From positions 1 to 13,779 of the IMG/VR virus record IMGVR_UViG_2534682222_000007: a DNA stretch of 13,779 bases. One strand, 5' to 3'. Every line of letters begins with the position of its first letter. Positions within the stretch are counted from its first letter, which is position 1. Below, piece by piece: positions 1-13,779 of the stretch. Origin of the DNA: a virus (lineage: Duplodnaviria > Heunggongvirae > Uroviricota > Caudoviricetes). The notes beneath the pieces were generated by a model. That model was not told where the DNA came from, did not search any database, and saw only the letters and a list, made by a program, of their open reading frames with translations. A program made the position numbers and the translations under genes.

Positions 1-1169
1 ACGCGACCCAGGATCAGGCCGTAACTGATGCCGTTGCGCAGCGTCTTCAGCGCGCGGCGTTGCAGACGGTCGATGCCGTTCTGCTCGTAGTACAGCGGGT
101 TAACAGTGGTGTTTGACCCGTTGATGATTTCGTTGGCCAGATCCAGCTCAAGGTTGATTGCAGTCCATGCTACTGAGTACCAGTAGTTGAACGGATTGCC
201 GTCCAGCATGTGGCCTGCCACCAGCATTTTGTTGCTCAGCCCACCTTCCGCGGCGGTACCGACGTAGTTGATGCTGTTATCCTGGAGCTGCTTTAGGAGC
301 GTGCCATTACCTTCGACCGGATACTCTGTAACCCCGTAACCAAATCGGTACGCCATCGGTGGCACCATGTTTGACGATCCAGGGTCGTTTGCCAGCGAGG
401 ACTGGAACGGGAACGCCATGGAAAACTCGCCTGCTGGGATGTTTGTTGACTCCACTCCCGCAAACACAGATTTGTTTTTGGTGGCGACCCACGCCGGGTA
501 GGTGGCGATCGTGGTGGTGACAAAGAAATACACCAGTGACGCCGGGCTGGTATACAGGCCAGTCAGGGTTTTAAACGTCGTCTCACCGTCCCACTCGCGC
601 GGCACCAGATACGAGAAGAATTTCTGGTAGGTGTTACCCAGAGAAATGTCTTCATCGATGAAGTCAGCCAGTGCAGCCACAGCAGCAGCGACAGACACGT
701 CGCCCAGCTCCAGCACGTAGACCGCGCGGGTAGTTCCCTGAGCCCAGAACGTGGTGTTCATCTCGATGATTTCGTTTGCCGCTACGGTTTTCACCGTACC
801 CATAACTGTTGCCGTTCCTGGGTCTGTAGCCAACGGATAAGTGAAGGCGGTAGAAGTGGTCACAGTGGCGGTTACGGCGCGGTTATAAGCTGCTGGAGTA
901 ACGCCAGAGACAACCAGCGGGATAGTGTTGCCAACGTTCCAGCCATGCGCTGCCGAGAGGGTCACCGTGACCACGCCGGTTGCCCAGGTGATAGTTGAAA
1001 TAGTTTTAGCCGGTGAGGTGATATCCTTCAGATCGTCTTTCGTCGTCAGGAGCTGGTACTCACCTGCAGCCAGGGTTGTTCCGCCCATGGAGATCATCGC
1101 GCCGGATTTGAGCAGCTGAGAGGGCTTCGGTGGATTGGTCACCGAGACGTTAATGTTAACAATTGCCAT
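1..1169 (-). CDS. Phage virion structural protein, partial (ATG at 1167-1169, C-terminus runs past window position 1); Ig-like Ala/Thr/Gly-rich domain near the N-terminus
   Basis: Manual translation of the minus strand from the ATG at 1167-1169 (MAIVNINVSVTNPPKPSQLL...) stays open to position 1 (about 389 codons). GGAG sits about 10 nt upstream. The gene is not in the supplied ORF track because it has no stop inside the window. Residues about 56-128 resemble the C-terminal domain of the 4554..5414 protein. Function (tail or neck) is not resolved. Confidence 0.5.
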   Translation of the reverse strand, partial: MAIVNINVSVTNPPKPSQLLKSGAMISMGGTTLAAGEYQLLTTKDDLKDITSPAKTISTITWATGVVTVTLSAAHGWNVGNTIPLVVSGVTPAAYNRAVTATVTTSTAFTYPLATDPGTATVMGTVKTVAANEIIEMNTTFWAQGTTRAVYVLELGDVSVAAAVAALADFIDEDISLGNTYQKFFSYLVPREWDGETTFKTLTGLYTSPASLVYFFVTTTIATYPAWVATKNKSVFAGVESTNIPAGEFSMAFPFQSSLANDPGSSNMVPPMAYRFGYGVTEYPVEGNGTLLKQLQDNSINYVGTAAEGGLSNKMLVAGHMLDGNPFNYWYSVAWTAINLELDLANEIINGSNTTVNPLYYEQNGIDRLQRRALKTLRNGISYGLILGR

Positions 1170-1173
1170 TTAT

Positions 1174-2115
1174 TTATTTCTCCGGGTAAATGGACGGAAT
1201 CGCTGACGTGATCAGCCTGCGCGCGACATTCCGCATGCGCTGCTGGTAATAGTTGACTTTGAACTTGATGGTTTTTCTCATGGCGATGATGTTCAGCTCG
1301 TTCTGCGTGACGCGCTCGTCCTGAACGACCGGGATATTCATCACGCCCATTTCCGCGTCATCGCCGAGCGTGTACTGCTGTACGTACCTCAGGAAATCTT
1401 CAACTCCGGCATTGCGCAGGCCAGTAATGGAGATCGTCACATCCTCGGAAACCAGCTGATACTGGTTCTGCTGCTCATCAAGGTAAAAGCTCCCGGCAAT
1501 CGGCGCGGTGTTGCTGCACTTCACCGTTGCATACGGCGGAGACAGGTTCTGCGTCGACAGCATGGCCGGGAACATAGGCATGTACTGACTCAGCGTCAGC
1601 CATACCGGCAATGAACTCGAAACCACCACATCAGCCAGATCGATGTCATCTGCAGAGTTGATGATCTGCGATCGCATGTAGGGGAATATTGCCTCACCTG
1701 TGTAGTGGTAGAGGTTGGCCGGTTCGTTCAACCCGGTGCGCCGGGAGAAGGAAAACTGAAGGCCAAAGAACTCGCCGATATACAGGACATCAGATCCGAT
1801 ATCGTTGAACGGGTCGATATCCGCCTGCGCGGTAAAAGTTACGACGTTCCGGTCGTAGAGTTGTTCATCGCCCTGTATGGTCTCGGTCGTCAGGTGCAGA
1901 TAACCTTTGACATCGACCGTATCTGGCTCGCTGCTCGGGTCGTCCGACAGAACAGACGCTTTCACCCAGAAGACGAAACCATCAAGCGGGAGAACCTTGC
2001 GGATATACTTCGTGAACGTGACCACCTGAAAGCGGCTCAGGTCATCAAGACCCTGCGTCAGCGTGGCGTTAAGCTCGGTTTTTGCAGTTTGCTGCAACTC
2101 ATCCAGGGAAGGCAT
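1174..2115 (-). CDS. Hypothetical phage virion-associated protein (313 aa)
   Basis: Long minus-strand ORF with an ATG start at 2113-2115, overlapping the upstream gene by 16 nt and tightly packed in the structural operon. No motif recognised by eye. Confidence 0.5.
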   Translation of the reverse strand: MPSLDELQQTAKTELNATLTQGLDDLSRFQVVTFTKYIRKVLPLDGFVFWVKASVLSDDPSSEPDTVDVKGYLHLTTETIQGDEQLYDRNVVTFTAQADIDPFNDIGSDVLYIGEFFGLQFSFSRRTGLNEPANLYHYTGEAIFPYMRSQIINSADDIDLADVVVSSSLPVWLTLSQYMPMFPAMLSTQNLSPPYATVKCSNTAPIAGSFYLDEQQNQYQLVSEDVTISITGLRNAGVEDFLRYVQQYTLGDDAEMGVMNIPVVQDERVTQNELNIIAMRKTIKFKVNYYQQRMRNVARRLITSAIPSIYPEK

Positions 2116-2533
2116 TTAGCACCCCGCTCACCCAGGCGCGCATAGCGGCCTGATAAGTTCCGGTATCGATGAATGACGGGCGCGGTGGCCCCTTTTTGTT
2201 CTTGAATCGCCGGGAGATGCCGTCCAGCGCGCGGCGCGTAGGCACACCAGGTAATCCGTTCATTTCGGTGTTGTCGAGGAAGGCGACAAACAGGTCATGG
2301 ATCCGTGACATTGACTCTGCCAGAGGGTCCCTTAACGGCGGCGCGCCAGCCAGCATATTTTCAAGATTTGCGGCGAGGTCTTTACTCATCAGGTCGGCGA
2401 TGTCGTTTCCGTACCTGTCAAAAAAGGTCTGCATAATCTGGTATTTTTCTTCCAGATATTCAGCAACATCCCCTGTCGTGGTGTTCTCATCTTCGTAGGG
2501 AAGGTCGATAACACCAAGATGAAAGGTGATCAT
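2099..2533 (-). CDS. Hypothetical phage protein (144 aa), possibly head-tail joining or virion morphogenesis
   Basis: ORF 2099..2545 re-set to the ATG at 2531-2533 (MITFHLGV...), which forms an ATGA overlap with the stop of the upstream gene. Its position after the capsid gene is the only basis for the functional guess. Confidence 0.45.
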   Translation of the reverse strand: MITFHLGVIDLPYEDENTTTGDVAEYLEEKYQIMQTFFDRYGNDIADLMSKDLAANLENMLAGAPPLRDPLAESMSRIHDLFVAFLDNTEMNGLPGVPTRRALDGISRRFKNKKGPPRPSFIDTGTYQAAMRAWVSGVLNAFPG

Positions 2534-2958
2534 GACAGCCCCCACAAACTACCGAACTGCTGGGCAATCATCAGATAGCGGCGTCCCCAGGGGTCCTGCA
2601 ACATTTGCAGATCGGCCAGAGACAAATCTTTGAAGAAGTCAGGCACCAGACGCTGCGCGCTGGTTGAGTTATCCCCGGCCCCCGTTATCACGCCAGCCTT
2701 GAAATTGTTAAGGCCATACTCTTTCCTGAACTCGGCGAATACCGATTCCGTGCCATAGTTGACCAGGAATGACGCGCCCAGGTTGTACACGGCAACGGTG
2801 TACAGATTCGGCGTGACGCACGCGATATCAGGGTTTACCCACTCAACCGCGCCGCCATACGCCAGGGTGAAAGACGGCGAGTCGTCGGGAACCTGCGCGG
2901 CGGTAACGCCCATGTCAGTTCGAACGAATTCGATGAATCCCGACAGGCTCGTTGTCAT
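2530..2958 (-). CDS. Hypothetical phage protein (142 aa), possible head-tail connector or head completion protein
   Basis: Minus-strand ORF with an ATG at 2956-2958 in ATGA overlap with the upstream stop. Translational coupling within the morphogenesis operon. Confidence 0.45.
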   Translation of the reverse strand: MTTSLSGFIEFVRTDMGVTAAQVPDDSPSFTLAYGGAVEWVNPDIACVTPNLYTVAVYNLGASFLVNYGTESVFAEFRKEYGLNNFKAGVITGAGDNSTSAQRLVPDFFKDLSLADLQMLQDPWGRRYLMIAQQFGSLWGLS

Positions 2959-3437
2959 TTTTTCTTGCTCCCGGATTTTTCAGTCACGATTGTTTCGTTA
3001 ACCGTTGGGGTGTCTTCGCTGTCTTCGCGGCCTTTCGCCTGCTCCGCGCTGACTTCCATTTCGCCGGAATAGCCGGTACCGCTTTCGCGCAGAGAACTAT
3101 CCAGAGCCGCTACGGATGCCTGGCGACGGCCGTGGGCGCCACGGGTCAGGTGAATATCGTTATCGCGGATTGCTTTTTCGATTACCGGCGCTGATACAGG
3201 CTTGTTTAGGCTGTAGCACAGGCCGACAAACGCCTGGCTCTGGTCGATTTTTGTCGAGTCAACCAGACCATAAACCTGATGGTGCTGCACCACCGCTTCA
3301 ATCTCTTCAGTTGTGCCATCCAGTACCATCATCTGGTCGCCGTGGTTAATCGGGATCTGAATAAGGCGGCCGGTCTCCAGCTTGCGATAGGCGAAAATCT
3401 GGCGCTGCTTGGTGGTGTTAGCGATATAGAGTTTCAT
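2955..3437 (-). CDS. Hypothetical phage protein (160 aa) with an acidic/Lys-rich, probably disordered C-terminal tail
   Basis: ATG at 3435-3437 with GAGGG about 7 nt upstream, immediately after the terminator that follows the capsid gene. The C-terminus (...EDSEDTPTVNETIVTEKSGSKKK) is low-complexity. Confidence 0.5.
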   Translation of the reverse strand: MKLYIANTTKQRQIFAYRKLETGRLIQIPINHGDQMMVLDGTTEEIEAVVQHHQVYGLVDSTKIDQSQAFVGLCYSLNKPVSAPVIEKAIRDNDIHLTRGAHGRRQASVAALDSSLRESGTGYSGEMEVSAEQAKGREDSEDTPTVNETIVTEKSGSKKK

Positions 3438-3450
3438 TGGTTACCCTCGT

Positions 3451-3484
3451 AAAAAAGCCCCTGCTGAGTTTCCCCGGCAGAGGC
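3451..3484 (-). terminator. Candidate intrinsic terminator after the major capsid gene (likely partial)
   Basis: On the minus-strand RNA, an 8-bp GC-rich stem (plus coordinates 3457-3464 pairing with 3477-3484, one G-U pair), a 12-nt loop, then UUUUUU (plus A-run 3451-3456). It lies between the capsid stop (3506) and the next start (3437). Confidence 0.5.
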
Positions 3485-3505
3485 TTAACCACTTCAAAGA
3501 ATGAA

Positions 3506-4537
3506 TCAGGCGCTGTACGCCATGGACAGGATGGTGATTGCTTCCGGACGAACTGCCCAGCCTGCGGTAGAACGCATTTCGGACAGAACATCGATGGCAC
3601 CACCAGCGATCGGCGTCGGAATCTCACGCGGCGCGGCCATGTCGGTAAACATCAGCGCGTTCGCGGCAAGAGACGGGGTCAGCTTGGCGAATTCGTTGGT
3701 GTTCACAGTCGAGTTGACCATTGGCACTTCGACCTCAGGGATGGTGATTACCACCGCATCGGTACCGCCAGCGCCAGCGCCGATCAATGTATCGTCATAC
3801 ACCCAGTCAACCTGGACGTTTGCGCCTTTCAGCACTTCTTTCACCGTGCCGCCGACGGTGTCAGTACCACCACCAGGACGCTGGTAAGAAGTCAGCTGAA
3901 CGATCTGCTGAATCTCCATGGCACCGAGGACGCGCTGCGGCCCCAGGATAACAACACGCTGCTGGCGACCCAGCTGCATGGTGCGGGTCAGTGCTGCCTG
4001 CACGTGGCCCAGAAGATATACCGCCATCTGCCCGTGGTCATAGGTTAGCACGGTGGTGTTGCTGTTGCTGTCAGGAGGCAGGGACTCGGTAGTCGCGCCA
4101 GCGGTGTTCAGCAGGCCTTCACCACCAGCAGGGTTCATGCCATACAGCAGAGCAGAGCGCAGTTGCTGGAAGATGCCCTGACGCATACCCAGACGCTGGG
4201 CTTCCGGCAGTGCAAAGTTCCAGTTACCGGCAGCGGCCATGTCATGGTGATCGTAGATACCACGGCAGCGGAACAGGTAGGTTGGGGTTGAAATCATCTT
4301 CGCATCCAGCGCCACGCTCGGCAGTTGGTTACCGTTACCGGACTGACTGGAAGTGGTCTGGGTGCGAATATCCAGGCGGCGCATGTAGACGTACTGATCT
4401 CCTACGCCGAGACGGACTTGCGGGTTACCGCTGGCGATGGTTTCAAACGCACCTGACGCCTGCTGGTAACCAATGATCATCTCCGGCGCGATGTACGACG
4501 GATTGACGATGGTGTAGCTGGGGGTAATTGCAGCCAT
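3506..4537 (-). CDS. Putative major capsid protein (343 aa)
   Basis: ATG at 4535-4537 with GGAG upstream. Size and position (after scaffold and decoration-like genes, followed by a terminator) fit a major capsid protein. Family assignment is from memory of similar phage clusters, not a search. Confidence 0.6.
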   Translation of the reverse strand: MAAITPSYTIVNPSYIAPEMIIGYQQASGAFETIASGNPQVRLGVGDQYVYMRRLDIRTQTTSSQSGNGNQLPSVALDAKMISTPTYLFRCRGIYDHHDMAAAGNWNFALPEAQRLGMRQGIFQQLRSALLYGMNPAGGEGLLNTAGATTESLPPDSNSNTTVLTYDHGQMAVYLLGHVQAALTRTMQLGRQQRVVILGPQRVLGAMEIQQIVQLTSYQRPGGGTDTVGGTVKEVLKGANVQVDWVYDDTLIGAGAGGTDAVVITIPEVEVPMVNSTVNTNEFAKLTPSLAANALMFTDMAAPREIPTPIAGGAIDVLSEMRSTAGWAVRPEAITILSMAYSA

Positions 4538-4553
4538 TTAATTCAGCTCCCGA

Positions 4554-5414
4554 TTAAAGTAAGACCAGCGCGCAGCTGTCGGTGTTATTCCAGGTCAGGA
4601 AACCAGTCGCGCTGTCATAGCTGACAGTCTTGGAGTTGCCTGATTCGATGGCGAGCACTTTTACCGGCAGCGTGATGTCGGAAAGCGTAACTGCGCCGAT
4701 GGTGCCCTGCGTGGTTGCAGCGCCGCCTGGTGCAGTTGCCGGTGCATAGGTGAAGGTCGTTGTGTTCACGACTGAAAGCACGACTACTGTGCCGTTGTAC
4801 GCCGCAGGAGCGACGCCGCTGATTTTCACGTACTGACCAGCAGTCAGGCCATGAGCTGAAGCGGTTACCGCTGTCGCCACACCATTGGCATAGGTCACTG
4901 CTGTTGTCGCAATATCAGAACCGGCGAAACCGGCCGCCGCCGCAGTGGTGATCTGGTTGTTCACGAAGTCCCAGGCCAGAGGCGTTTTCACTGACGCGCC
5001 GGAGGTGCCAAGCGCAACAACCTGCGCAGAAGCTTTCAACGGAACGCGCATGTTGGAGCCCAGGCGGTAGTACGAAACGCTCATGCCTGATGCGTACAGC
5101 GGAACCGGTGACTGCGGAGTGGTCAGGCCGTTGTGAGCCTGATTGAAGACAGTGAAGCCTTCCAGCTCGGCAACAGACACAGCGCGACGGATGTAAGAAC
5201 CGCGAGGGCTTGAACTGGTGCCAGGCAGAAGCTCAGCAACTGGCAGACCGCCCCAGAGAGGTTTGTTTTCCGTTGCCGCCACAGTACCCGCCGCCAGGTT
5301 AAAGCGGTTAGCCGGGTCATCAAGCGCCACGCCCTGAATATAACCGTCGGACTGCACACCGAAGGAGCCAAGCGCATTCGTGGTTGCCATCGGGTTAAGA
5401 GATAAGTTAGCCAT
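4554..5414 (-). CDS. Putative head decoration / accessory structural protein (286 aa) with a C-terminal Ig-like domain
   Basis: ATG at 5412-5414, sited between the scaffold and capsid genes (the position lambda D occupies). The C-terminal region (...VTASAHGLTAGQYVKISGVAPAAYNGTVVV...TFTYAPATAPGG...) is Ala/Thr/Gly-rich and paralogous to the N-terminal domain of the 1..1169 protein. Confidence 0.45.
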   Translation of the reverse strand: MANLSLNPMATTNALGSFGVQSDGYIQGVALDDPANRFNLAAGTVAATENKPLWGGLPVAELLPGTSSSPRGSYIRRAVSVAELEGFTVFNQAHNGLTTPQSPVPLYASGMSVSYYRLGSNMRVPLKASAQVVALGTSGASVKTPLAWDFVNNQITTAAAAGFAGSDIATTAVTYANGVATAVTASAHGLTAGQYVKISGVAPAAYNGTVVVLSVVNTTTFTYAPATAPGGAATTQGTIGAVTLSDITLPVKVLAIESGNSKTVSYDSATGFLTWNNTDSCALVLL

Positions 5415-5429
5415 GCTTGAGAGCTCCCG

Positions 5430-7052
<1,623 letters not shown>

Positions 7053-7061
7053 TTAATGCTC

Positions 7062-7892
7062 CTATGCTGATTTCATAGACGCCATGAACTTCTGCCCCTT
7101 CTGGGTCAGCATGTGTTCAGGAATACTCCGGAGGTTGTACAGATAGGTTACGTAACACCGGCAAAAAACCTCTTCTCCGGGCTGCGTAATTTCATCGAGA
7201 TAACCGGAAGGCCCCACCTTCACGTAACCGTTTTTTTGTGCCCAGTTACCGCGGATGAGATAGACCACCTTATCGCGCTCTTTGTGATCTTCCCGGTAGT
7301 CATAACCTGCCTGCCGCCAGTGACTATGCCACTCTGCAGCTATGGCGTTATTACTGGCAGCTATGATGTTGTCGATGTTTGCAATGAGTTTATGGTTCTG
7401 ATCAATCATCACCCGACGCGCTTCAAAATCAATTTGCAAGGCGCTTTTCTGAATGTGATCACAGTTGTAATTAACCCCGCTTTTGGATGATGGAGATAGT
7501 CCACCTCCAACGTAATCCTGCACAGGGATGCTGGTAGCCCACCCGCTAAATCTCTGGACTGTTTTGTTTATCGCGCCTGTACGATTTAACTTAATTAAGT
7601 CGGCGCTAGCCAAGATGCGTCTATCAAGCTCGCTTCTTAACTTAGGCTCCATGTAATTCAGAGTAAATCGAGACAAGCCTGGATGCCGATCCAGCGCCTT
7701 AGCCCTGTTTATCTGCATTTCATAGGTTGATCGAAGCTTATCTGACACCCTTGATATGTAGTCATCATGGGTTTCGCTTTCCGCCGCCTGGCGAATAATT
7801 CCCTGCCATCGCTCCAGCTCCTCTCTCGAGGTATAGCCATTGCGCAAGAAGAATTTAACCGCCTCCCTTACTGTTCTGGAAAATTTGCTCAT
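7062..7892 (-). CDS. Putative head morphogenesis / minor head protein (Mu F / SPP1 gp7-like, 276 aa)
   Basis: ATG at 7890-7892 in ATGA overlap with the portal stop. Position directly after the portal gene and a C-terminal CRC motif (EEVFCRCYVTY) that I recall as conserved in Mu F-like proteins. Confidence 0.55.
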   Translation of the reverse strand: MSKFSRTVREAVKFFLRNGYTSREELERWQGIIRQAAESETHDDYISRVSDKLRSTYEMQINRAKALDRHPGLSRFTLNYMEPKLRSELDRRILASADLIKLNRTGAINKTVQRFSGWATSIPVQDYVGGGLSPSSKSGVNYNCDHIQKSALQIDFEARRVMIDQNHKLIANIDNIIAASNNAIAAEWHSHWRQAGYDYREDHKERDKVVYLIRGNWAQKNGYVKVGPSGYLDEITQPGEEVFCRCYVTYLYNLRSIPEHMLTQKGQKFMASMKSA

Positions 7893-9307
7893 AGCATCAT
7901 CCCGCCGCCAGGCTCTTCAGCTTTCGGCGGCTCAGGCGGTGGGTTTTCCTTCAGAGAGTCGTAATCGAGGTTAAGCCGCTGAGGGAATAGGTTCTCGTTG
8001 GCGTTGGCGTTTTCACACGCCCACTCGATCAGCGTCGCGCGGTTTTCCGGGTCAGCAGTGAGTTGCGGCAGCACCACTTCCAGCATACTGACGATCGCCT
8101 TAAAGCGCGTTTCGTCGACCTTCACCTTCTCGCTTTCCGGCTCTTTCAGGGGGGATGGCCAGCGATATTCGAAGTTGTTTATCCAGCTCGCGAAATACAC
8201 GCTGTAGGTGTTTTTCAGCTCCGGGAAGTCAGCACGCAGCGACTGGAAGAATTCAATGCTCCAGGCGCGGTACTGGCACACGCGGATGAAGAACGCATAA
8301 AGCGGGTCCAGCCACTCGCGGATGTTGTCGATGTACACCGCTACAGCGCGTGCATCTTCAGTGCCTTCACCGAAGCCCTGGGCGAACGTCTCGGAGTTGA
8401 GGATGATTGCCGGCATGTCAGCGGCGGCGGCCACGTTCTCGAGAATGTGCTTACGCGCAGAGTCGAGAGGTTTTTCCAGGTTGCTCAGGTCGATTGACTC
8501 GATACCATCCTGCGGTCCAATCTGCAGGACCTCACCAGTTTTACCTCGCTTCAGCAGCATGCGCTTGAATCCACCTAGCGCCTGCATAACTTTGTTAACA
8601 ACCGCGCCAGCGCCTGCAATTTTGGTAATTAGCAGTCCGCCTTTAACCGCAACCATGTCATCAGTGCGCATGGTCTGAATGAAGGATTTCAGCGGGAAAA
8701 GCGCACGCTGATACACACTGCGTCCGGTGAACCCGAACGCCGCAGGGTTGTACGCGAGATAAATAGGATCTTCGTTCTGCGCGACTATGCATCGCGATTT
8801 GTGGTATGGCTTGCCAGCCACACGAATGCCTTCGACTTTCTGGAAGTCATGGGCGTTTGGGTCCTGGTTCAGCACGATACTGCCCGCGGTATTCAACGGA
8901 TCGAGAATGTTAAAGCTGACGTTGTGCTTGTACAGCGTGCGGTAGTCCAGCGATTCATTCGGCTCCTGGTTATCCACCAGCATTGCTATCGCTGATACGC
9001 CGTAAATACGGGCTATGCGCGCGGCGTTGGCGATGTGCTGGTTCGCACCCATCTCTTTCCATTCGCGCTCGAACGCGTCGCGCAGGCGCTGCTCAAGGCC
9101 GTACGACTGGGCAACATGCACGGTGCGCGGCTCATTCATCGCCATTTTAATCGGGCGATCCACCATCTTTCCGCCCAGGGGGTGGAAGAGATAAATCGTC
9201 TTGCAGGCCTGATACCCAGCCGAGGAACCAGGCTGAATATCGTCGCTGTCCAGCAATGCCATCAACTCTGGAGAGCAGCTGCCGATTTCGAAATCGTCTT
9301 CGTTCAT
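7889..9307 (-). CDS. Putative portal protein (472 aa)
   Basis: ATG at 9305-9307, immediately downstream of the large terminase gene, with size typical of a portal and an acidic C-terminus. Assignment is by synteny; no diagnostic motif was verified. Confidence 0.6.
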   Translation of the reverse strand: MNEDDFEIGSCSPELMALLDSDDIQPGSSAGYQACKTIYLFHPLGGKMVDRPIKMAMNEPRTVHVAQSYGLEQRLRDAFEREWKEMGANQHIANAARIARIYGVSAIAMLVDNQEPNESLDYRTLYKHNVSFNILDPLNTAGSIVLNQDPNAHDFQKVEGIRVAGKPYHKSRCIVAQNEDPIYLAYNPAAFGFTGRSVYQRALFPLKSFIQTMRTDDMVAVKGGLLITKIAGAGAVVNKVMQALGGFKRMLLKRGKTGEVLQIGPQDGIESIDLSNLEKPLDSARKHILENVAAAADMPAIILNSETFAQGFGEGTEDARAVAVYIDNIREWLDPLYAFFIRVCQYRAWSIEFFQSLRADFPELKNTYSVYFASWINNFEYRWPSPLKEPESEKVKVDETRFKAIVSMLEVVLPQLTADPENRATLIEWACENANANENLFPQRLNLDYDSLKENPPPEPPKAEEPGGGMML

Positions 9308-9318
9308 TGGTTCTCTCG

Positions 9319-10650
9319 TCAGATTGCGTCGCCGCTGCCGAAGGCGATGATCAGCCCGTAGGTGTAATCATCGAGCAAATCGTCGGCGCGCTTGTGCGCG
9401 TTCTTATCGGCAAGGTGGAATCGTGAAACCTGCTTATGCAGATGGTTTGCTGTTTCGCCCTTGAAGACGGCCGTCTTCTCGTAGGCGTATCGGGATATTT
9501 TCGCCAGCCCGCGGTAGTGATAACCGGAGGCCATAATGGCGCGTTCGTCCTTCCCTTTGCTGGTCAGGGCGGATTCAATTTTGTTGACCGGCCATCCCAG
9601 GCTTTCACCTTTCTGCAGGAGGATGCTGCCCATGCTGGCGTCTTCGATGAAAACGCCGAGGCTGCCATTTACAGCGACGCACTGGCCGGATAGCTCATTC
9701 AGCCGGGTGAAAACAGACGGAATCCACTCTTCCAGCAGCGCGCCGTCGATCTGCACTACATCCCAGTCGAGTATGGTCAGGCGCTGAATGCCGGGCCGGG
9801 TGTCGACGGCGTAGTAAACTACCGCCGTGCCGTCGTGCTCAGTACCGCCCTTAACGGCGGTATCCATGACAGCGAAAACGGCCTGGCACATCTCAGGGTA
9901 ATCGACTGGCTGATCCTGGTTTTCACCCTCGAACCATTTGCGGACGTCGAACAGTGACGCAGCGGACCAGTCGACGAACTCGGCCAGGAACTCCTGCCGG
10001 AAAACGCGAGGGTCGTTGTTCTGTCGCTCTTTCTCCAGTTCCTCAGGAGGAACGAAGGGGTTGGATGACGTCGGAGCATGATGCTCATGGAAGCCGAGGT
10101 CTTTGTTATGGCAGATGGCATAGAAGAAGTTTTCTTCGTCCACACCGTCAGGCGTTGAGAATACGTAGGCCCGGCCTTTTGTCGTCAGTAGCGTCGGCTT
10201 AATCGACTTCGGCCAGATTTCCTTCAGCATTTCAGGCGACTTGGTAAACGCCGCCTCATCGATCAGGATAATTTCGTACTCACGACCACGACCGGCCAGT
10301 TTGTTGTCGTTGGTGACCCAGAAGTCAATCTTCCCGCCGTTCTTCAGCAGCAGGCGCTTTTCCTGCCGGCTGAAGCTCTTTTTCAGCGGCAGCAGGATTT
10401 CTTCCAACTTGTCGTAGATCTCCTGGTACTGGCGATACTCGGCAGTGAAGATACCGACCCGACCGCCCAGCTCGATATCCATGCCCGGGCGCCGGAACTG
10501 CGACGTTGCGTAGGTCACCGCAGCGCTCGACAGCATGAAGGTTTTCCCCCAGCGTCGACCACAGCGAACCGCATTCAACTGGTGATCCCAGGAGTCAGAC
10601 CAGACCGTTAACTGCCCGTTGTGTAGCGTGGGTAGGTAAATGTCGGCCAT
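9319..10650 (-). CDS. terL: Terminase large subunit (443 aa)
   Basis: Walker A-like motif VRCGRRWGKT near the N-terminus, Walker B-like YEIILIDEAAF, and C-terminal acidic motifs (AVMDTAV, VFIEDAS, DDLLDDYTYG) consistent with an RNase H-like nuclease domain. Start ATG at 10648-10650, 3 nt after the small-subunit stop. Confidence 0.85.
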   Translation of the reverse strand: MADIYLPTLHNGQLTVWSDSWDHQLNAVRCGRRWGKTFMLSSAAVTYATSQFRRPGMDIELGGRVGIFTAEYRQYQEIYDKLEEILLPLKKSFSRQEKRLLLKNGGKIDFWVTNDNKLAGRGREYEIILIDEAAFTKSPEMLKEIWPKSIKPTLLTTKGRAYVFSTPDGVDEENFFYAICHNKDLGFHEHHAPTSSNPFVPPEELEKERQNNDPRVFRQEFLAEFVDWSAASLFDVRKWFEGENQDQPVDYPEMCQAVFAVMDTAVKGGTEHDGTAVVYYAVDTRPGIQRLTILDWDVVQIDGALLEEWIPSVFTRLNELSGQCVAVNGSLGVFIEDASMGSILLQKGESLGWPVNKIESALTSKGKDERAIMASGYHYRGLAKISRYAYEKTAVFKGETANHLHKQVSRFHLADKNAHKRADDLLDDYTYGLIIAFGSGDAI

Positions 10651-10653
10651 GAT

Positions 10654-11370
10654 TTATCTTCCCGGGATTGGCAGCGAGTTATGCACGACGATCGCGTTAT
10701 CCTTGTCACCGTCTTTCAGCGCATCGATTTCGAGCTCAACCTTTTCGGTCGCGGCTTCGCGGTAAGCGGCATCAACGCGCTGTTTGATAATCGCCGCCTT
10801 GGTGTACTCCAGCGACTCAATGCGGGCCGTGTTACGGTGCATGGCTTTTTGCGCAGATGAAATTAGCTCGTGAAGATTATTGGCGGTATCGCCATCAGCT
10901 ATTTCAAGCTCAGTCTGCCAGCGGCCAATATTTTCAGCAGCGGTAAGGTTCGCCGCACGCAACCAGAAAAGCTCATCATCAAGAGTGAGCGCCTGAGCAT
11001 CCTCGGTAATGGCATCAGATAGAAGCATTCGGCGTCCATAGCCACCATGCTTCAATGCGTTCTGATTTCCGGGTCTGGAATTATAATGAGCGCGTTTCGT
11101 TTCTGGTGAGTTTGATGGTTTTGCGACTTCGCAGTTATCCACTAAGCCCGCTGGTGGCTTACTCTTTGCCACTTTCTCCTTTTGCGAATTCGCATTCTTT
11201 TTCGCAGCTTCTTTCTGCGATTTCGCACCATACGACGTTACTTTGATGTAGCGTTTCGCAGATGCGTAATTCAGTCCCTGAGCCTGGCACCAGTCTTTGG
11301 GGGAAATACCTGTTTTGGCATGCTCGGCGAGGAACTGGTCTTGCAGTGCTCCCCAGTCCGGTTTTGCCAT
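10654..11370 (-). CDS. terS: Putative terminase small subunit (238 aa)
   Basis: Immediately upstream of and translationally coupled to the large terminase gene. The N-terminal segment looks HTH-like (ISPKDWCQAQGLNYASAKRYIKV). GAGGT ribosome-binding site 8 nt upstream of the ATG at 11368-11370. Confidence 0.55.
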   Translation of the reverse strand: MAKPDWGALQDQFLAEHAKTGISPKDWCQAQGLNYASAKRYIKVTSYGAKSQKEAAKKNANSQKEKVAKSKPPAGLVDNCEVAKPSNSPETKRAHYNSRPGNQNALKHGGYGRRMLLSDAITEDAQALTLDDELFWLRAANLTAAENIGRWQTELEIADGDTANNLHELISSAQKAMHRNTARIESLEYTKAAIIKQRVDAAYREAATEKVELEIDALKDGDKDNAIVVHNSLPIPGR

Positions 11371-11432
11371 AATACTTACCTCACGTTGACATTATCGAAG
11401 CCCCTCAGTGAAGGGCTCCTGTAATGCCGCGA

Positions 11433-11957
11433 TCAGCCAATAAGTAATTCCGGCTGCGTTACCTGCATGATGTGCTCATGCTCGAGCTCCAGGACGCGCT
11501 TCTCTTTCTTCCGCTCGTTCATCAAACGGCTTCCGATCGTGCCTTTCAGCTTTGAGCGCGTTTCTTTGATGGCGTAGCGGTGCTGCATTTCTTCGCCCAT
11601 CGCCATGCGTCGGTTTAGCTGCTCGGCCATCCAGTTAAAGGCGGCGATGTATTGCTCTTTAATCGCGGTCGCCGTTTTTCCGGTGAAACCCATTACAAGC
11701 ATCATCCAGCCATCTTTCGTGATGTTGTACATCAGGCGCATTTCGCCTTTCTTATCGAGGTATTCAACGGGCTCAAAATTGAGCCGGTTAAAATCAGGGG
11801 AGCAATCTGACTCCAGCCGCTTGATAGTGCGAAGAACGTTTTTATGCGCCTTGCCGAAATAGCGGGCGATCTTCATGGACGTCGTGATGACCTTTCCGTT
11901 GGATGGCAAAACCATTTCGCGGAAGTCGAAGGCCGGAATAACTGACGGATTATTCAT
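11433..11957 (-). CDS. rha: Rha-family phage regulatory protein (about 174 aa)
   Basis: The N-terminal sequence (MNNPSVIPAFDFREMVLPSNGKVITTSMKIARYFGKAHKNVLRTIKRL...FNRLNFEPVEYLDKKGEMRLMYNITKDGWMMLVMGFTGKTA) matches my recollection of the Rha domain. The track ORF 11433..11993 starts on a non-ATG codon; the first ATG at 11955-11957 is preferred. Confidence 0.7.
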   Translation of the reverse strand: MNNPSVIPAFDFREMVLPSNGKVITTSMKIARYFGKAHKNVLRTIKRLESDCSPDFNRLNFEPVEYLDKKGEMRLMYNITKDGWMMLVMGFTGKTATAIKEQYIAAFNWMAEQLNRRMAMGEEMQHRYAIKETRSKLKGTIGSRLMNERKKEKRVLELEHEHIMQVTQPELLIG

Positions 11958-12091
11958 AGCGTCTTTACCTTTTAGAAAGTGAGCCTGTCTCACAGAAAAG
12001 CCGCCCGAGAGAGGTCGCCACCTATAACGGCATTTCTCAGGCTCGCTTACTGAAAGGCTCTCGTTGATGTACGCGTGAGATGCGCAGACAT

Positions 12092-12116
12092 AAAAAAGCC
12101 CGACCGAAGTCAGGCT
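12092..12116 (-). terminator. Intrinsic terminator downstream of Rz/Rz1
   Basis: Minus-strand RNA: 8-bp stem (one G-U pair) closed by a UUCG tetraloop, followed by UUUUUU (plus A-run 12092-12097); 20 nt after the Rz stop at 12136. Confidence 0.6.
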
Positions 12117-12135
12117 CTGTTATTTGGGTGACGAA

Positions 12136-12609
12136 TCACTTAAGACACTGCTCTTTGATGTAGTCCTGCATGCCGCGAATCATTTTGTCAGCGGTTGCGA
12201 TTCCGTCCCGGTGATCGAAATAATTCCGTCGAGCGTCTGGAGTAAGTTCGGGGGCTCCTGCATCATCCACGCCGGTGGAGGAGGTGGCTTTTGGCACTCC
12301 AGGGCAGGTTGCAGCGATGCGCAGCCGTTTAGCGCCAGAATCGACATCACGACGCAAATCGTTAATGGTCTTTTTAGCATCGGACAATTCCTTCGTGTAT
12401 TTGGCATCCAGTGCAGCGACATCGCGCTGACGGGTCTGCATGTCTTTAATGGTGGCGGTCGCCAGGAGGAGTTTCTCAGTGGCCTTATCGCGCTGGTCTC
12501 TGTAAGTGATGGCGTTGTCGCGGTAGTGGTTCACGAAGAAAGCCAGTGCGCCGATTAACGCCAGCACCAGCAACTGCAGCCAGTAACGCTTAACCAGTGC
12601 GCTAATCAT
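12136..12609 (-). CDS. Rz: Rz-type i-spanin (157 aa)
   Basis: N-terminal transmembrane segment followed by [12 protein letters not shown]...[15 protein letters not shown], closely resembling lambda Rz as I recall it. ATGA overlap with the endolysin stop. Confidence 0.85.
12180..12380 (-). CDS. Rz1: Rz1-type o-spanin lipoprotein (66 aa), embedded in Rz in the +1 frame
   Basis: ORF entirely inside Rz. Start re-set to the ATG at 12378-12380 (AAGGA about 9 nt upstream): [24 protein letters not shown]... with a signal peptide, lipobox-like LNGC, and the PPPPPAW motif characteristic of lambda Rz1. Confidence 0.8.
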
Positions 12610-13055
12610 GACAGGAACAGAGCTCGCTCTGCCTTGCGGCGATTCGTGAGCCCCGGCATCACCTTTCCGCCTGATTTATTCCAGCGCAGAAATTCATCTG
12701 CCGCGCCTTTTATATCGCCAGCATTCAGCTTTTTCAGCAGTGTAGATGTGGAAAGAGCACGCGACCCAACGTTGTAAGCGAACGACACCAGTGCGTCGAA
12801 CTGGCCTTGTGTCAGCTTCACCCTGACAACTTTCAGCACGTCATTCTCATAACCAACAAGCCCTGTTTTCAGAAGCCTGTCAGCGGTTTGCTGGTCGATA
12901 GTCATACCGCGCTTTACTGGCTTTCCGTCAACCGGATGGGTCCAGCCATAGCCGATGGTCCACGGCGCATCTCCCGTTCCGGGGTCGGGGTAAGCAGTCA
13001 GCCGACAACCTTCAAATTTTTTTATCAGAGCAATTCCGTCAGGACTGGTTTGCAT
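12606..13055 (-). CDS. R: Endolysin, T4/P22-type lysozyme (GH24), soluble (149 aa)
   Basis: Catalytic E-D-T arrangement in [26 protein letters not shown] and a C-terminus ([11 protein letters not shown]) like P22 gp19. The track ORF begins at a TTG (13082); the ATG at 13053-13055 with GGGAG 6-7 nt upstream is preferred, giving a 17-nt overlap with S. Confidence 0.85.
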
Positions 13056-13362
13056 CGTCAACTCCCGCCTTTTTTGCTGCAAGTTTTTTAATCAGATTGC
13101 CGATCGAATCGGTGCCGATGTATCCAATAAAGACGCTGGCTATGTAGGCGAGGTTGCTGCTCAGGCCGATAAAGTCCAGAAGGTCACGAACGAACCAGGC
13201 AATCATCGCGCACATCAGCGCATCAATTAGCGTTTTTGTTACCGCGCCGCCGTTATAGCGACCACGCAGATACGCCATGATAAAAGCCAGCATTGCACCA
13301 ATACCCTGCTCCTTGGCGGCAAGTAGCGCAGCGATGAAATCTTGTTTGTATGGCATTTTCAT
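13039..13362 (-). CDS. S: Class I holin, lambda S-like (107 aa) with a dual-start Met1-Lys2-Met3 motif
   Basis: [39 protein letters not shown]... is near-identical in pattern to lambda S as I recall it. GGAGG ribosome-binding site upstream. The track ORF (147 aa) is an N-terminal over-extension. Confidence 0.9.
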
Positions 13363-13372
13363 AGGCCTCACC

Positions 13373-13386
13373 TCCGATTTTTCGGA
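13373..13386 (-). promoter_or_regulatory. sdi-like stem-loop overlapping the S ribosome-binding site
   Basis: Minus-strand RNA 5'-UCCGA-AAAA-UCGGA-3' (plus 13373-13377 pairing with 13382-13386); the 3' arm overlaps the GGAGG Shine-Dalgarno just before the tandem start codons. Confidence 0.35.
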
Positions 13387-13470
13387 TGGCGCTGTGTGTG
13401 TTTGTAGGGGAAAGGCCGTCAGACTCTGATTGCTACATGGCATCTGAAAATGATATCTGCGGCCTGCAAT

Positions 13471-13494
13471 AAAAAAGCCCACGGCGCGGTGGGC
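13471..13494 (-). terminator. Intrinsic terminator within the late leader, about 110 nt upstream of S
   Basis: Minus-strand RNA: perfect 6-bp GC-rich stem GCCCAC/GUGGGC (plus 13477-13482 with 13489-13494), 6-nt loop, then UUUUUU (plus A-run 13471-13476). Confidence 0.5.
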
Positions 13495-13749
13495 AATAGA
13501 GGGTAGTGCGTTGAGCTTTTGCTCTTATGGTCCTGGTAGGTATTTGGTGTGTGGTGACCGGTGCTGTGTTTTCCGGCATGTAAATGAACTACCCGTCGTC
13601 GCCATGGTGAGCCTTTACCTCACCATCTAGCTGATAAGTTAGCGCATCAGCCTGCGCATTCACCACAACGATAATTGCACTGCGCCTGTTTCGGTTAGCG
13701 TAACGGGATTAACCGGTCACCCCAATGCAATTATCTGTTGTGCAGATAC

Positions 13750-13778
13750 AAAAAAGCCCCGAGCTATTAACTCAGGGC
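13750..13778 (-). terminator. Intrinsic terminator, candidate tR' analogue (end of a 6S-like late leader RNA)
   Basis: Minus-strand RNA: 8-bp stem (plus 13756-13763 with 13771-13778, one G-U), 7-nt loop, then UUUUUU (plus 13750-13755). It sits about 390 nt upstream of S, matching the tR'-to-S spacing in lambda; the flanking sequence resembles lambda tR' from memory. Confidence 0.5.
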
Positions 13779-13779
13779 C

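Follow-up and report, generated by a model that had tools for sequence, protein, structure and literature searches.

The 13,779-nt window analysed here, a stretch of Caudoviricetes DNA covering positions 1 to 13,779 of IMG/VR record IMGVR_UViG_2534682222_000007, carries a gene of the Rha family (rha) between its lysis and packaging genes. Between the terminator that follows the last lysis gene and the rha start codon lies a conserved RNA of roughly 130 nt, the leader, which comprises two hairpins (P1 and P2) and two long-range pairings (PK1 and PK2). It is this leader, not the gene, that constitutes the new part of the locus: a widespread, strongly covarying and apparently uncatalogued 5' RNA. 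Comparative alignment shows it to be a conserved RNA fold in which all helices covary, including the helix that holds the Shine-Dalgarno (SD) sequence and both long-range pairings. The interpretation we favour, with somewhat better than even confidence, is that a promoterless late rha gene of the phi80/P22 type is placed under a portable leader of ~130 nt that acts as a translational lock in cis.

Structurally, the leader opens with P1 (12071-12085; all features lie on the minus strand), a hairpin of sequence GCGC-AUCUCAC-GCGU whose loop, UCUCAC (12075-12080), is the 5' strand of PK1. A spacer ending at 12058 follows, and its final six bases, CGAGAG (12058-12063), form the 5' strand of PK2. 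The long hairpin P2 (11967-12058), recognisable as an inverted repeat, in the minimum-free-energy fold and in the covariation counts, is built from a base helix GCCUUU/AAAGGU (12053-12058 with 11967-11972), a middle helix GAGCCUG/CAGGCUC (12038-12044 with 11981-11987) and two upper helices, AGAAA/UUUCU (12033-12037 with 11994-11998) and GCCGUU/GGCGGC (12026-12031 with 12000-12005), with a side hairpin GGU/ACC within its apex. The apical internal loop of P2 supplies the 3' strand of PK2, CUCUCG (12006-12011), and a 6-nt bulge on its 3' side supplies the 3' strand of PK1, GUGAGA (11988-11993), so that PK1 reads UCUCAC/GUGAGA and PK2 reads CGAGAG/CUCUCG in the window. The SD sequence AAAGG (11968-11972) is predicted to pair with the upstream CCUUU in the P2 base helix, an assignment supported by covariation in diverged copies, and the start codon (11955-11957) follows 10 nt after it. 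The minimum-free-energy fold of the window leader lies at -43 to -47 kcal/mol. The fold made of P1 and P2 reaches -42.9 kcal/mol, compared with -25.2 kcal/mol when both long-range pairings are forced to nest; this alternative nested fold, in which the two pairings replace P2, was rejected as the ground state because it is about 18 kcal/mol less stable.

Covariation was scored in a MAFFT alignment of 100 leaders (A2) and in a model-based alignment of 97 copies that includes diverged ones (A3). In A2, 87.7% of cells are paired, against 38-48% when the partner is slid by one to three columns; the corresponding values in A3 are 89.9% and 31-49%. Both sides have changed at 41 of the 45 pairs in A3, where shuffles give a mean of 19 ± 2 and none of 500 reaches the observed value. 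P1 is 99% paired, with double changes at all four of its pairs. The two long-range pairings lie outside the covariance model, so the alignment is unfitted to either of them; in A3, PK1 is 89.9% paired with double changes at 6/6 pairs and PK2 is 83.1% paired with double changes at 5/6. These alignments also reveal two size classes of the leader, with a P2 of either 60-63 nt or 74-80 nt; in the long class a further side hairpin, GGUGGCGACC, separates the upper helix from the PK2 strand, and the lengths of the stacked helices stay similar.

The range of sequences that satisfy each long-range pairing is broad. For PK1, 33 loop/bulge sequence combinations occur in A3, of which about 15 are fully complementary types, among them UCGCACG/CGUGCGA, UCUCAC/GUGAGA, UCGUACG/CGUACGA, UCGCAUG/CAUGCGA, UUCACC/GGUGAA, UCCACC/GGUGGA, UCACCC/GGGUGA, CCCAC/GUGGG, CUGACA/UGUCAG, UCACAC/GUGUGA, UUCUCC/GGAGAA, CGCUC/GAGCG, CGCCC/GGGCG and CCGCA/UGCGG. 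PK2 is represented by eight or more complementary types, including GAAAGU/ACUUUC, CGAGAG/CUCUCG, CCCGAG/CUCGGG, AAGAG/CUCUU, CGAUAA/UUAUCG, CCAGAG/CUCUGG, CGAGACA/UGUCUCG, CACAGAG/CUCUGUG, CGUCGA/UCGACG and CCACCGA/UCGGUGG. The leader of phage P22 combines the last type of each series, CCGCA/UGCGG for PK1 and CCACCGA/UCGGUGG for PK2.

Diverged copies keep every helix with other sequence. Their middle helices read GAGCCUUUG/CAAAGGUUC and GUGAGCCA/UGGCUCAC, their SD-bearing base helices read CACAUAG/CUAUGUG, CCUUAC/UUAAGG and CCUAC/AUAGG, and unconstrained folding returns the same P1 together with a P2 that has a 6-nt 3' bulge. Across the nested helices, G-U pairs outnumber A-C combinations by 177 to 49, which indicates that it is the sense strand that folds. 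A leader peptide beginning at a recurrent ATG at the junction of U tract and P1 was considered and rejected, since P2 lengths of 60-80 nt shift the frame between copies, CAGTAA stops occur in the long type and the variation is compensatory at the RNA level.

The fold also accounts for a small dyad, GTGAG-N5-CTCAC (11979-11993), that the sequence-only reading had taken for a possible operator or RNA element just upstream of the rha ribosome-binding site. The dyad exists, and the expectation of an RNA element at this place is borne out, for the dyad is a fragment of the covarying 130-nt leader, made up of the P2 bulge and the 3' half of the middle helix. Taken by itself, the local structure does not stand: dyads of 5 bp are at chance-level frequency (114 in the window, about 8 per kb, against 81 ± 10 in shuffles), and relatives do not conserve the local pairing (GUGCGA...CUCAC). 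Its two halves pair elsewhere, GUGAGA (11988-11993) with UCUCAC (12075-12080) and CAGGCUC (11981-11987) with GAGCCUG (12038-12044).

The leader extends far beyond the window. From the terminator as far as the rha ATG, 133 bp (window 11953-12085) are shared at 96-98% identity by phages with unrelated downstream genes, for example HK620 (hkbK, KilA-N), HK106, CobraSix and the Salmonella phages S107, S135 and S137, and in the alignment conservation ends exactly at the ATG. A scan of IMG/VR with a 21-nt pattern returned at least 120 loci on viral contigs, and the same scan of species-representative genomes also returned at least 120; among the matches listed for the latter, 77 true copies pass the filter, and the 43 loci that fail it are mostly chance matches. 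The filtered copies span more than 30 genera, mostly Enterobacterales (Yersinia, Pantoea, Rahnella, Buttiauxella, Kosakonia, Citrobacter, Enterobacter and others), plus Cobetia. BLAST places the leader in 168 GenBank phages, and overall more than 200 copies are found in phages and prophages from over 30 enterobacterial genera. A covariance model (R1) was built from 100 distinct leaders; among the loci searched it recovered the true copies and no chance pattern match, and it also found diverged copies outside the pattern. The window copy (11955-12104, minus strand) scores 133.7 bits (E=1e-33), a partly circular value as the window is in the seed, and the P22 leader, outside the seed, scores 57.5 bits (E=5e-15), as befits a diverged subtype. 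Unlike the phi80 leader, the window copy lacks about 10 nt between the U tract and P1.

Several records attributed to other hosts carry leaders 94-100% identical to coliphage copies: Actinobacillus phage vB_Apl-pPE4 (PP818812, L006), Aeromonas phage AsXd-1 (MH178096) and the metagenome-assembled genomes L149, L194 and L205 (Bacillota, Collinsella and Cellvibrionaceae). These look like mis-assigned hosts or contaminating enterobacterial phage DNA.

The cargo of the leader is as varied as its distribution is wide. The 119 complete downstream open reading frames (ORFs) fall into 14 protein clusters that are unrelated from the ATG onward: Rha (53 copies), a phi80 gp66-like cluster with a tail-tip-like segment (31), KilA-N (13), glycosyltransferase-like (7), T5orf172/GIY-YIG-like (2), HNH (1), ANT (1) and, for the remainder, several clusters of unknown type. 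Upstream, 55 copies adjoin the spanin gene Rz, and the others follow a wide variety of genes, some of them from the capsid and tail regions. Furthermore, 12 loci carry two copies on the same strand, among them phi80 (rha and gp66), and some of these lie ~500 nt apart as tandem cassettes. Taken together, the diverse upstream genes, the unrelated cargo and the two-copy loci identify the element, by comparative genomics, as a portable leader for accessory genes at several late-operon positions.

Such mobility raises the question of whether the locus acts merely as DNA, either as a recombination 'linker' for cargo swaps or as a protein-binding inverted repeat, with no RNA function. The 96-98% identity of the leader between otherwise different phages, its sharp boundaries at the ATG and the terminator, and the homing-type nucleases (HNH, T5orf172/GIY-YIG-like) among the cargo would be expected of such an element. 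However, it does not predict the many compensatory double changes over five helices and two long-range pairings, the excess of G-U over A-C in the nested helices or the location of the SD within a covarying helix, and a stable RNA has been seen in P22 (PMC13397905); we regard a purely DNA-level role as extremely improbable. Recombination at the leader may well be a consequence of its conservation.

That RNA, P22F, is an 89-nt species (AF217253, 21301-21389), one of six new P22 small RNAs and described as having "no known function" (Noncoding RNA 2026;12:21, PMC13397905). It was detected at 2054 reads per million (RPM) in P22-infected Salmonella cells and at 926 RPM in vesicles, was validated by reverse transcription PCR, and ends on its 3' side at a distance of 6 nt from the rha start; the authors of that study propose that it acts in the manner of IsrK (PMC13397905). 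The coordinates of P22F coincide with the P2 hairpin plus the SD of the P22 leader. P22F is experimental evidence that a stable RNA from this leader exists in P22 infection. Unlike the account given here, P22F was published without a leader family, P1, pseudoknots, SD sequestration or variable cargo, and the window leader belongs to a different sequence subtype.

The match to P22F brings forward two further explanations. In the first, the leader is mainly a cut site, for RNase III in P2 or for RNase E in the U-rich stretch between terminator and P1. Cleavage would leave the lysis mRNA with a protective terminator hairpin and split it from the cargo mRNA, would free the SD (activation) or remove it (inactivation), and would make P22F the excised product. 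P2 does form an almost unbroken helix of about 20-30 bp, with an asymmetric bulge on its 3' side, and resembles phage RNase III sites such as the T7 R sites and the lambda N leader, and the terminator, U tract and P1 directly adjoin one another in most copies. Cells infected with P22 accumulate an 89-nt RNA that spans P2 and stops 6 nt short of the rha AUG (PMC13397905). However, recognition by RNase III leaves the two covarying long-range pairings unexplained, and the ends of P22F are staggered by about 17 nt in place of the 2-nt overhang expected of RNase III. As the leader's principal role, processing appears rather unlikely, and it is compatible with a translational lock, not exclusive of it.

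In the second explanation, the leader or P2 is released as a trans-acting small RNA that acts on host RNAs, on other leader copies or on its own mRNA, on the model of the short IsrK that activates the long isrK-orf45-anrP transcript in Gifsy-1. The abundance of P22F in infected cells and vesicles and the IsrK-like role proposed by its authors (PMC13397905) would agree with this, as would the 12 loci with two same-strand copies. On the other side, the exposed nucleotides of the leader are not conserved whereas pairing within the molecule is; there is no match to IsrK, C4 or any other Rfam family; the leader does not end in a terminator; and the PK1 and PK2 sequences differ between the two copies in 12/12 two-copy loci, which argues for cis-specific pairing. 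A trans-acting role is accordingly improbable. The difference between copies may reflect selection against cross-pairing in one transcript, although general diversity could give the same result. The two-copy loci are L001 (797-929, minus), L007, L040, L173, L170, L189, L083, L085, L093, L063, L155 and L006. In L063, a prophage contig, the known small RNA STnc100 (7060-7262, minus; 55.7 bits, above threshold) lies between the two leader copies.

The leader family is apparently uncatalogued. Rfam 15 places no family on it, whether the window is scanned at the gathering threshold, the leader region alone at E<=10, or 17 related loci that include P22, HK620, HK106, an Stx2a phage and phi80; apart from a sub-threshold isrJ-like match beside the leader, these scans gave noise (mir-627, mir-4524 and DUF2815 RNA at 15.8 bits). 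Keyword searches of the available literature nowhere found the leader described as a family, and only P22F surfaced. Among known classes, a ribozyme or riboswitch was rejected, the leader having no conserved unpaired core nucleotides, no Rfam match and functionally heterogeneous cargo. The prophage small RNAs Pas, AgvB and AsxR were likewise set aside: the Pas RNAs adjoin the holin/lysozyme operon and have their own terminators, and the AgvB and AsxR models of Rfam 15 miss the leader.

The sequence-only reading had proposed that rha is a terminator-flanked, independently expressed accessory module inserted between lysis and packaging genes. Its upstream boundary is as described: directly after Rz, at 12092-12118, the terminator scan calls an intrinsic terminator, whose stem AGCCUGAC/GUCGGGCU is capped by a UUCG loop and followed by a U run. 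The downstream boundary is of another kind. Past the rha stop comes a hairpin (about 11397-11421) followed by GAUAAUG, not by a U tract, with the terS ribosome-binding site next; it is absent from the terminator-scan calls. Its loop, UUCACUGA, is conserved and its stem differs from that of phi80 by compensatory changes, which makes a conserved stem-loop at the 3' end of the rha module the probable reading; it may serve as an mRNA 3' stabiliser or be a decayed terminator. At the upstream terminator, the last ~45 nt of Rz together with the terminator (12094-12164, minus) give a full-length, sub-threshold match to isrJ, a Salmonella Gifsy-1 small RNA (27.2 bits against a gathering threshold of 37, E=0.01), and isrJ and the Rz 3' end share the motif AUUCGUCACCCAAAUAA just past the stop codon. 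RNAs of the isrJ type may be 3'-end fragments of lysis-cassette mRNAs that end at such terminators.

Expression from a promoter of its own finds no support. In consensus scans, no sigma-70-like site occurs between the terminator and the rha ATG (12092-11958) of the window, nor before rha in phi80, and the same sigma-70 rule matches only 1/100 and 3/97 related leaders, with no conserved promoter among these 197. A T run, the sign of a terminator, lies upstream of the leader in 116/130 related copies, and ~10% of leader copies follow the preceding gene without any terminator. Because the conserved, covarying RNA structure begins right after the terminator U tract, the transcript must enter from upstream.

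Morons, in the definition of Hendrix and Juhala (bor, lom and the HK97-type genes), have their own promoter and are expressed in the lysogen. The window unit resembles lambdoid morons as an interchangeable, terminator-associated extra gene between conserved late-operon genes, and a moron with its own lysogen promoter, terminators on both sides and the dyad as operator would be at home in this slot, a known moron slot with a strong upstream terminator and cargo that varies between phages. Unlike them, it has no detectable promoter and is headed by a terminator plus a leader predicted to block translation. Judged by the features that define a moron, window rha has the variable slot and neither a sigma-70-like promoter of its own nor a downstream terminator. 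Moreover, the related leaders are equally without a promoter-like site, RNA covariation starts right after the terminator, the dyad is non-conserved and at chance frequency, and P22 rha is a late-operon gene (PMC4936722). A promoter-bearing, independently expressed moron is therefore not supported, and we consider it highly improbable.

The gene itself is well defined. Over residues 25-111 its product matches PF09669 (Phage_pRha) at 101.7 bits (E=3.3e-29; cut-off 29.9); it also matches phrog_518 (E=8e-73), and phi80 Rha (PHI80_62) is 78% identical to it over its full length, which confirms the proposed Rha-family assignment. The coding sequence, 174 codons from ATG 11957 to the stop at 11433, is not the longest frame, which begins at GTG 11993; the start conserved in the family is ATG 11957, preceded by AAAGG at 11968-11972, and the sequence 5' of it is the conserved non-coding leader common to unrelated genes. 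The deposited rha ORFs of phi80 (184 aa; L001 2377-2412) and P22 (201 aa; L248 1826-1895) begin within the structured leader. Since the start kept across unrelated cargo is the ATG after the sequestered SD, these deposited starts probably lie too far upstream, which would give phi80 Rha 12 surplus codons at its N-terminus and P22 Rha about 23. No solved structure was found for any relative of the window Rha protein.

Genomic neighborhood analysis places rha where the sequence-only reading had it, between lysis and packaging genes, in a slot of variable content. The minus strand carries every gene from holin to terL: holin (13039-13482), endolysin (12606-13082), Rz as the last lysis gene and upstream neighbour of the rha unit (12136-12609; PF03245, E=7e-40; phrog_13, E=2e-66), Rz1 embedded in Rz (12180-12422, from the ORF list), rha, terS for the small terminase subunit directly downstream (10654-11370; phrog_370, E=5e-76) and terL for the large one (9319-10650). 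The terS product is recognised only by PHROG phrog_370, with no Pfam match at E<=0.01. Nor is rha newly inserted here: this slot is the prototype rha position in phi80 and P22. The order Rz-terminator-leader-rha also occurs in phi80, P22, Stx2a-converting phages, Klebsiella phage Chronis and HK639, and hundreds of E. coli prophages share the order Rz-terminator-rha. In P22, gene 15 (Rz), a terminator and rha follow one another; in phi80, Rz, a terminator and rha are followed by the region up to cos. Other phages fill the same slot with KilA-N, GIY-YIG-like, HNH or unknown genes.

From this comparison, the window rha is an ordinary late gene of the phi80/P22 type in its usual place and a probable orthologue of phi80 rha. 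With phi80 and P22 rha it has in common the protein family, the leader family and its place, which is preceded by Rz and a terminator and followed by the packaging region; unlike the arrangement there, where small genes intervene before packaging, terS stands directly next to it in the window. In P22, rha (orf201) belongs to the late operon, and in the absence of IHF its product impairs lytic growth (PMC4936722, citing Mozola & Friedman 1985 and Henthorn & Friedman 1995), and the phi80 record annotates rha with "DNA synthesis inhibition in IHF- hosts". The exact IHF consensus, WATCAANNNNTTR, has no match anywhere in the window. The gene itself adds nothing new, as rha in this slot has been known since the phi80/P22 genetics of 1985-1995.

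How the leader might act on such a gene can be outlined from its predicted structure. Late-operon RNA polymerase, Q-antiterminated by analogy with lambdoid biology, would read through the Rz terminator to reach rha. In the ground state the transcript would form P1 and P2, with the P2 base helix pairing the SD with CCUUU, and would add PK1 (P1 loop with the 6-nt P2 bulge) and PK2 (spacer with the P2 apical internal loop); this fold would block translation in cis. Terminator and leader together would prevent expression of potentially harmful cargo (Rha, KilA-N, ANT, nucleases and others) in the lysogen and hold it at a low level in lytic growth. The leading guess for an opening step is RNase III cleavage of P2, by analogy with the lambda N leader and E. 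coli adhE; other candidates are an RNase E cut in the U-rich linker or the release of a functional small RNA.

Several considerations weigh against a simple translational lock, or against the weight placed on its evidence. For the window phage, translational repression is a reading of the modelled structure, and the folding-energy z-score of the window leader is a modest -1.7. The pattern used to harvest copies fixed 21 nt, and CUUUCAG, GAGCCUG and CAGGCUC are invariant in most rows because it did so; only 10 to 15 diverged copies test these columns. Alignment A3 was fitted to the nested structure, and statistics based on shuffles are inflated by kinship between the sequences. A remnant of decay would account for P22F as well as a functional processed RNA would. 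A hairpin that masks an SD needs no tertiary pairings, so that two covarying ones suggest a more specific function, such as a regulated switch, a processing signal or a binding platform. On geometric reasoning, if PK2 cannot coexist with the full lower stem, the RNA would be a two-state switch and not a static lock. A count of helical layers gives 16-18 for the upper arm together with PK2 and 19-21 for the lower arm, roughly equal lengths, and a fold-back, side-by-side architecture with a three-way junction closed by PK1 therefore seems possible as a model. We advance, more tentatively than the translational lock, the view that the leader represents an unrecognised portable class of doubly pseudoknotted regulatory RNA that marks accessory cassettes across the late operons of temperate enterobacterial phages and works as a regulated device, not as a passive lock.

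The leader thus combines features met separately elsewhere. The 5' region of IS200 tnpA, reportedly described by Beuzon and colleagues in 1999, consists of a terminator plus a stem-loop that occludes the ribosome-binding site; there too a potentially harmful gene is shielded twice, from transcription arriving from outside by the terminator and from ribosomes by the stem-loop. However, Rfam scans reveal no homology, and IS200 is not known to have the pseudoknot pairings and serves one fixed gene, whereas the cargo of the leader is interchangeable. In the c4-icd-ant system of P1/P7, P22 sar-ant and Gifsy-1 IsrK-orf45-anrP, RNA structure or pairing around the ribosome-binding site similarly determines whether temperate phages translate proteins of the Ant, KilA or Rha type. 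Unlike the leader, whose covarying partners are all internal, those systems use trans or antisense RNAs with their own promoters or processing; C4 and IsrK have no Rfam match on the leader, and the only sub-threshold match, the isrJ-like one at the Rz 3' end and terminator, lies outside it. RNase III-dependent leaders, such as the lambda N leader, E. coli adhE and the T7 R sites, in which cleavage alters translation, share with it a long imperfect hairpin that includes the ribosome-binding site. The additional tertiary pairings have no counterpart there, and cleavage of the window leader is a candidate step only.

The leader is present in the model phages phi80, P22, HK620, HK639 and the mEp phages as well as in Stx2a-converting phages, and its description gives the orphan small RNA P22F a structural identity and a testable role. 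For annotation, it implies that other cargo ORFs besides phi80 and P22 rha probably have deposited starts inside the leader, too far upstream. For phage biology, it suggests that many accessory genes, for which regulator or antirepressor is a frequent annotation, share one kind of post-transcriptional control, with the leader as a ready-made portable translational control module. If the leader is a regulated device, it could switch between two states, or it could serve for processing or sensing and be opened by a specific host or phage factor (RNase III, a late protein); a functional small RNA (P22F) may also be released from it. In that case the leader would determine when and in what amounts proteins of the Rha, KilA and Ant types are made, and it could explain why rha has been seen to harm the phage only where the host is IHF-deficient.

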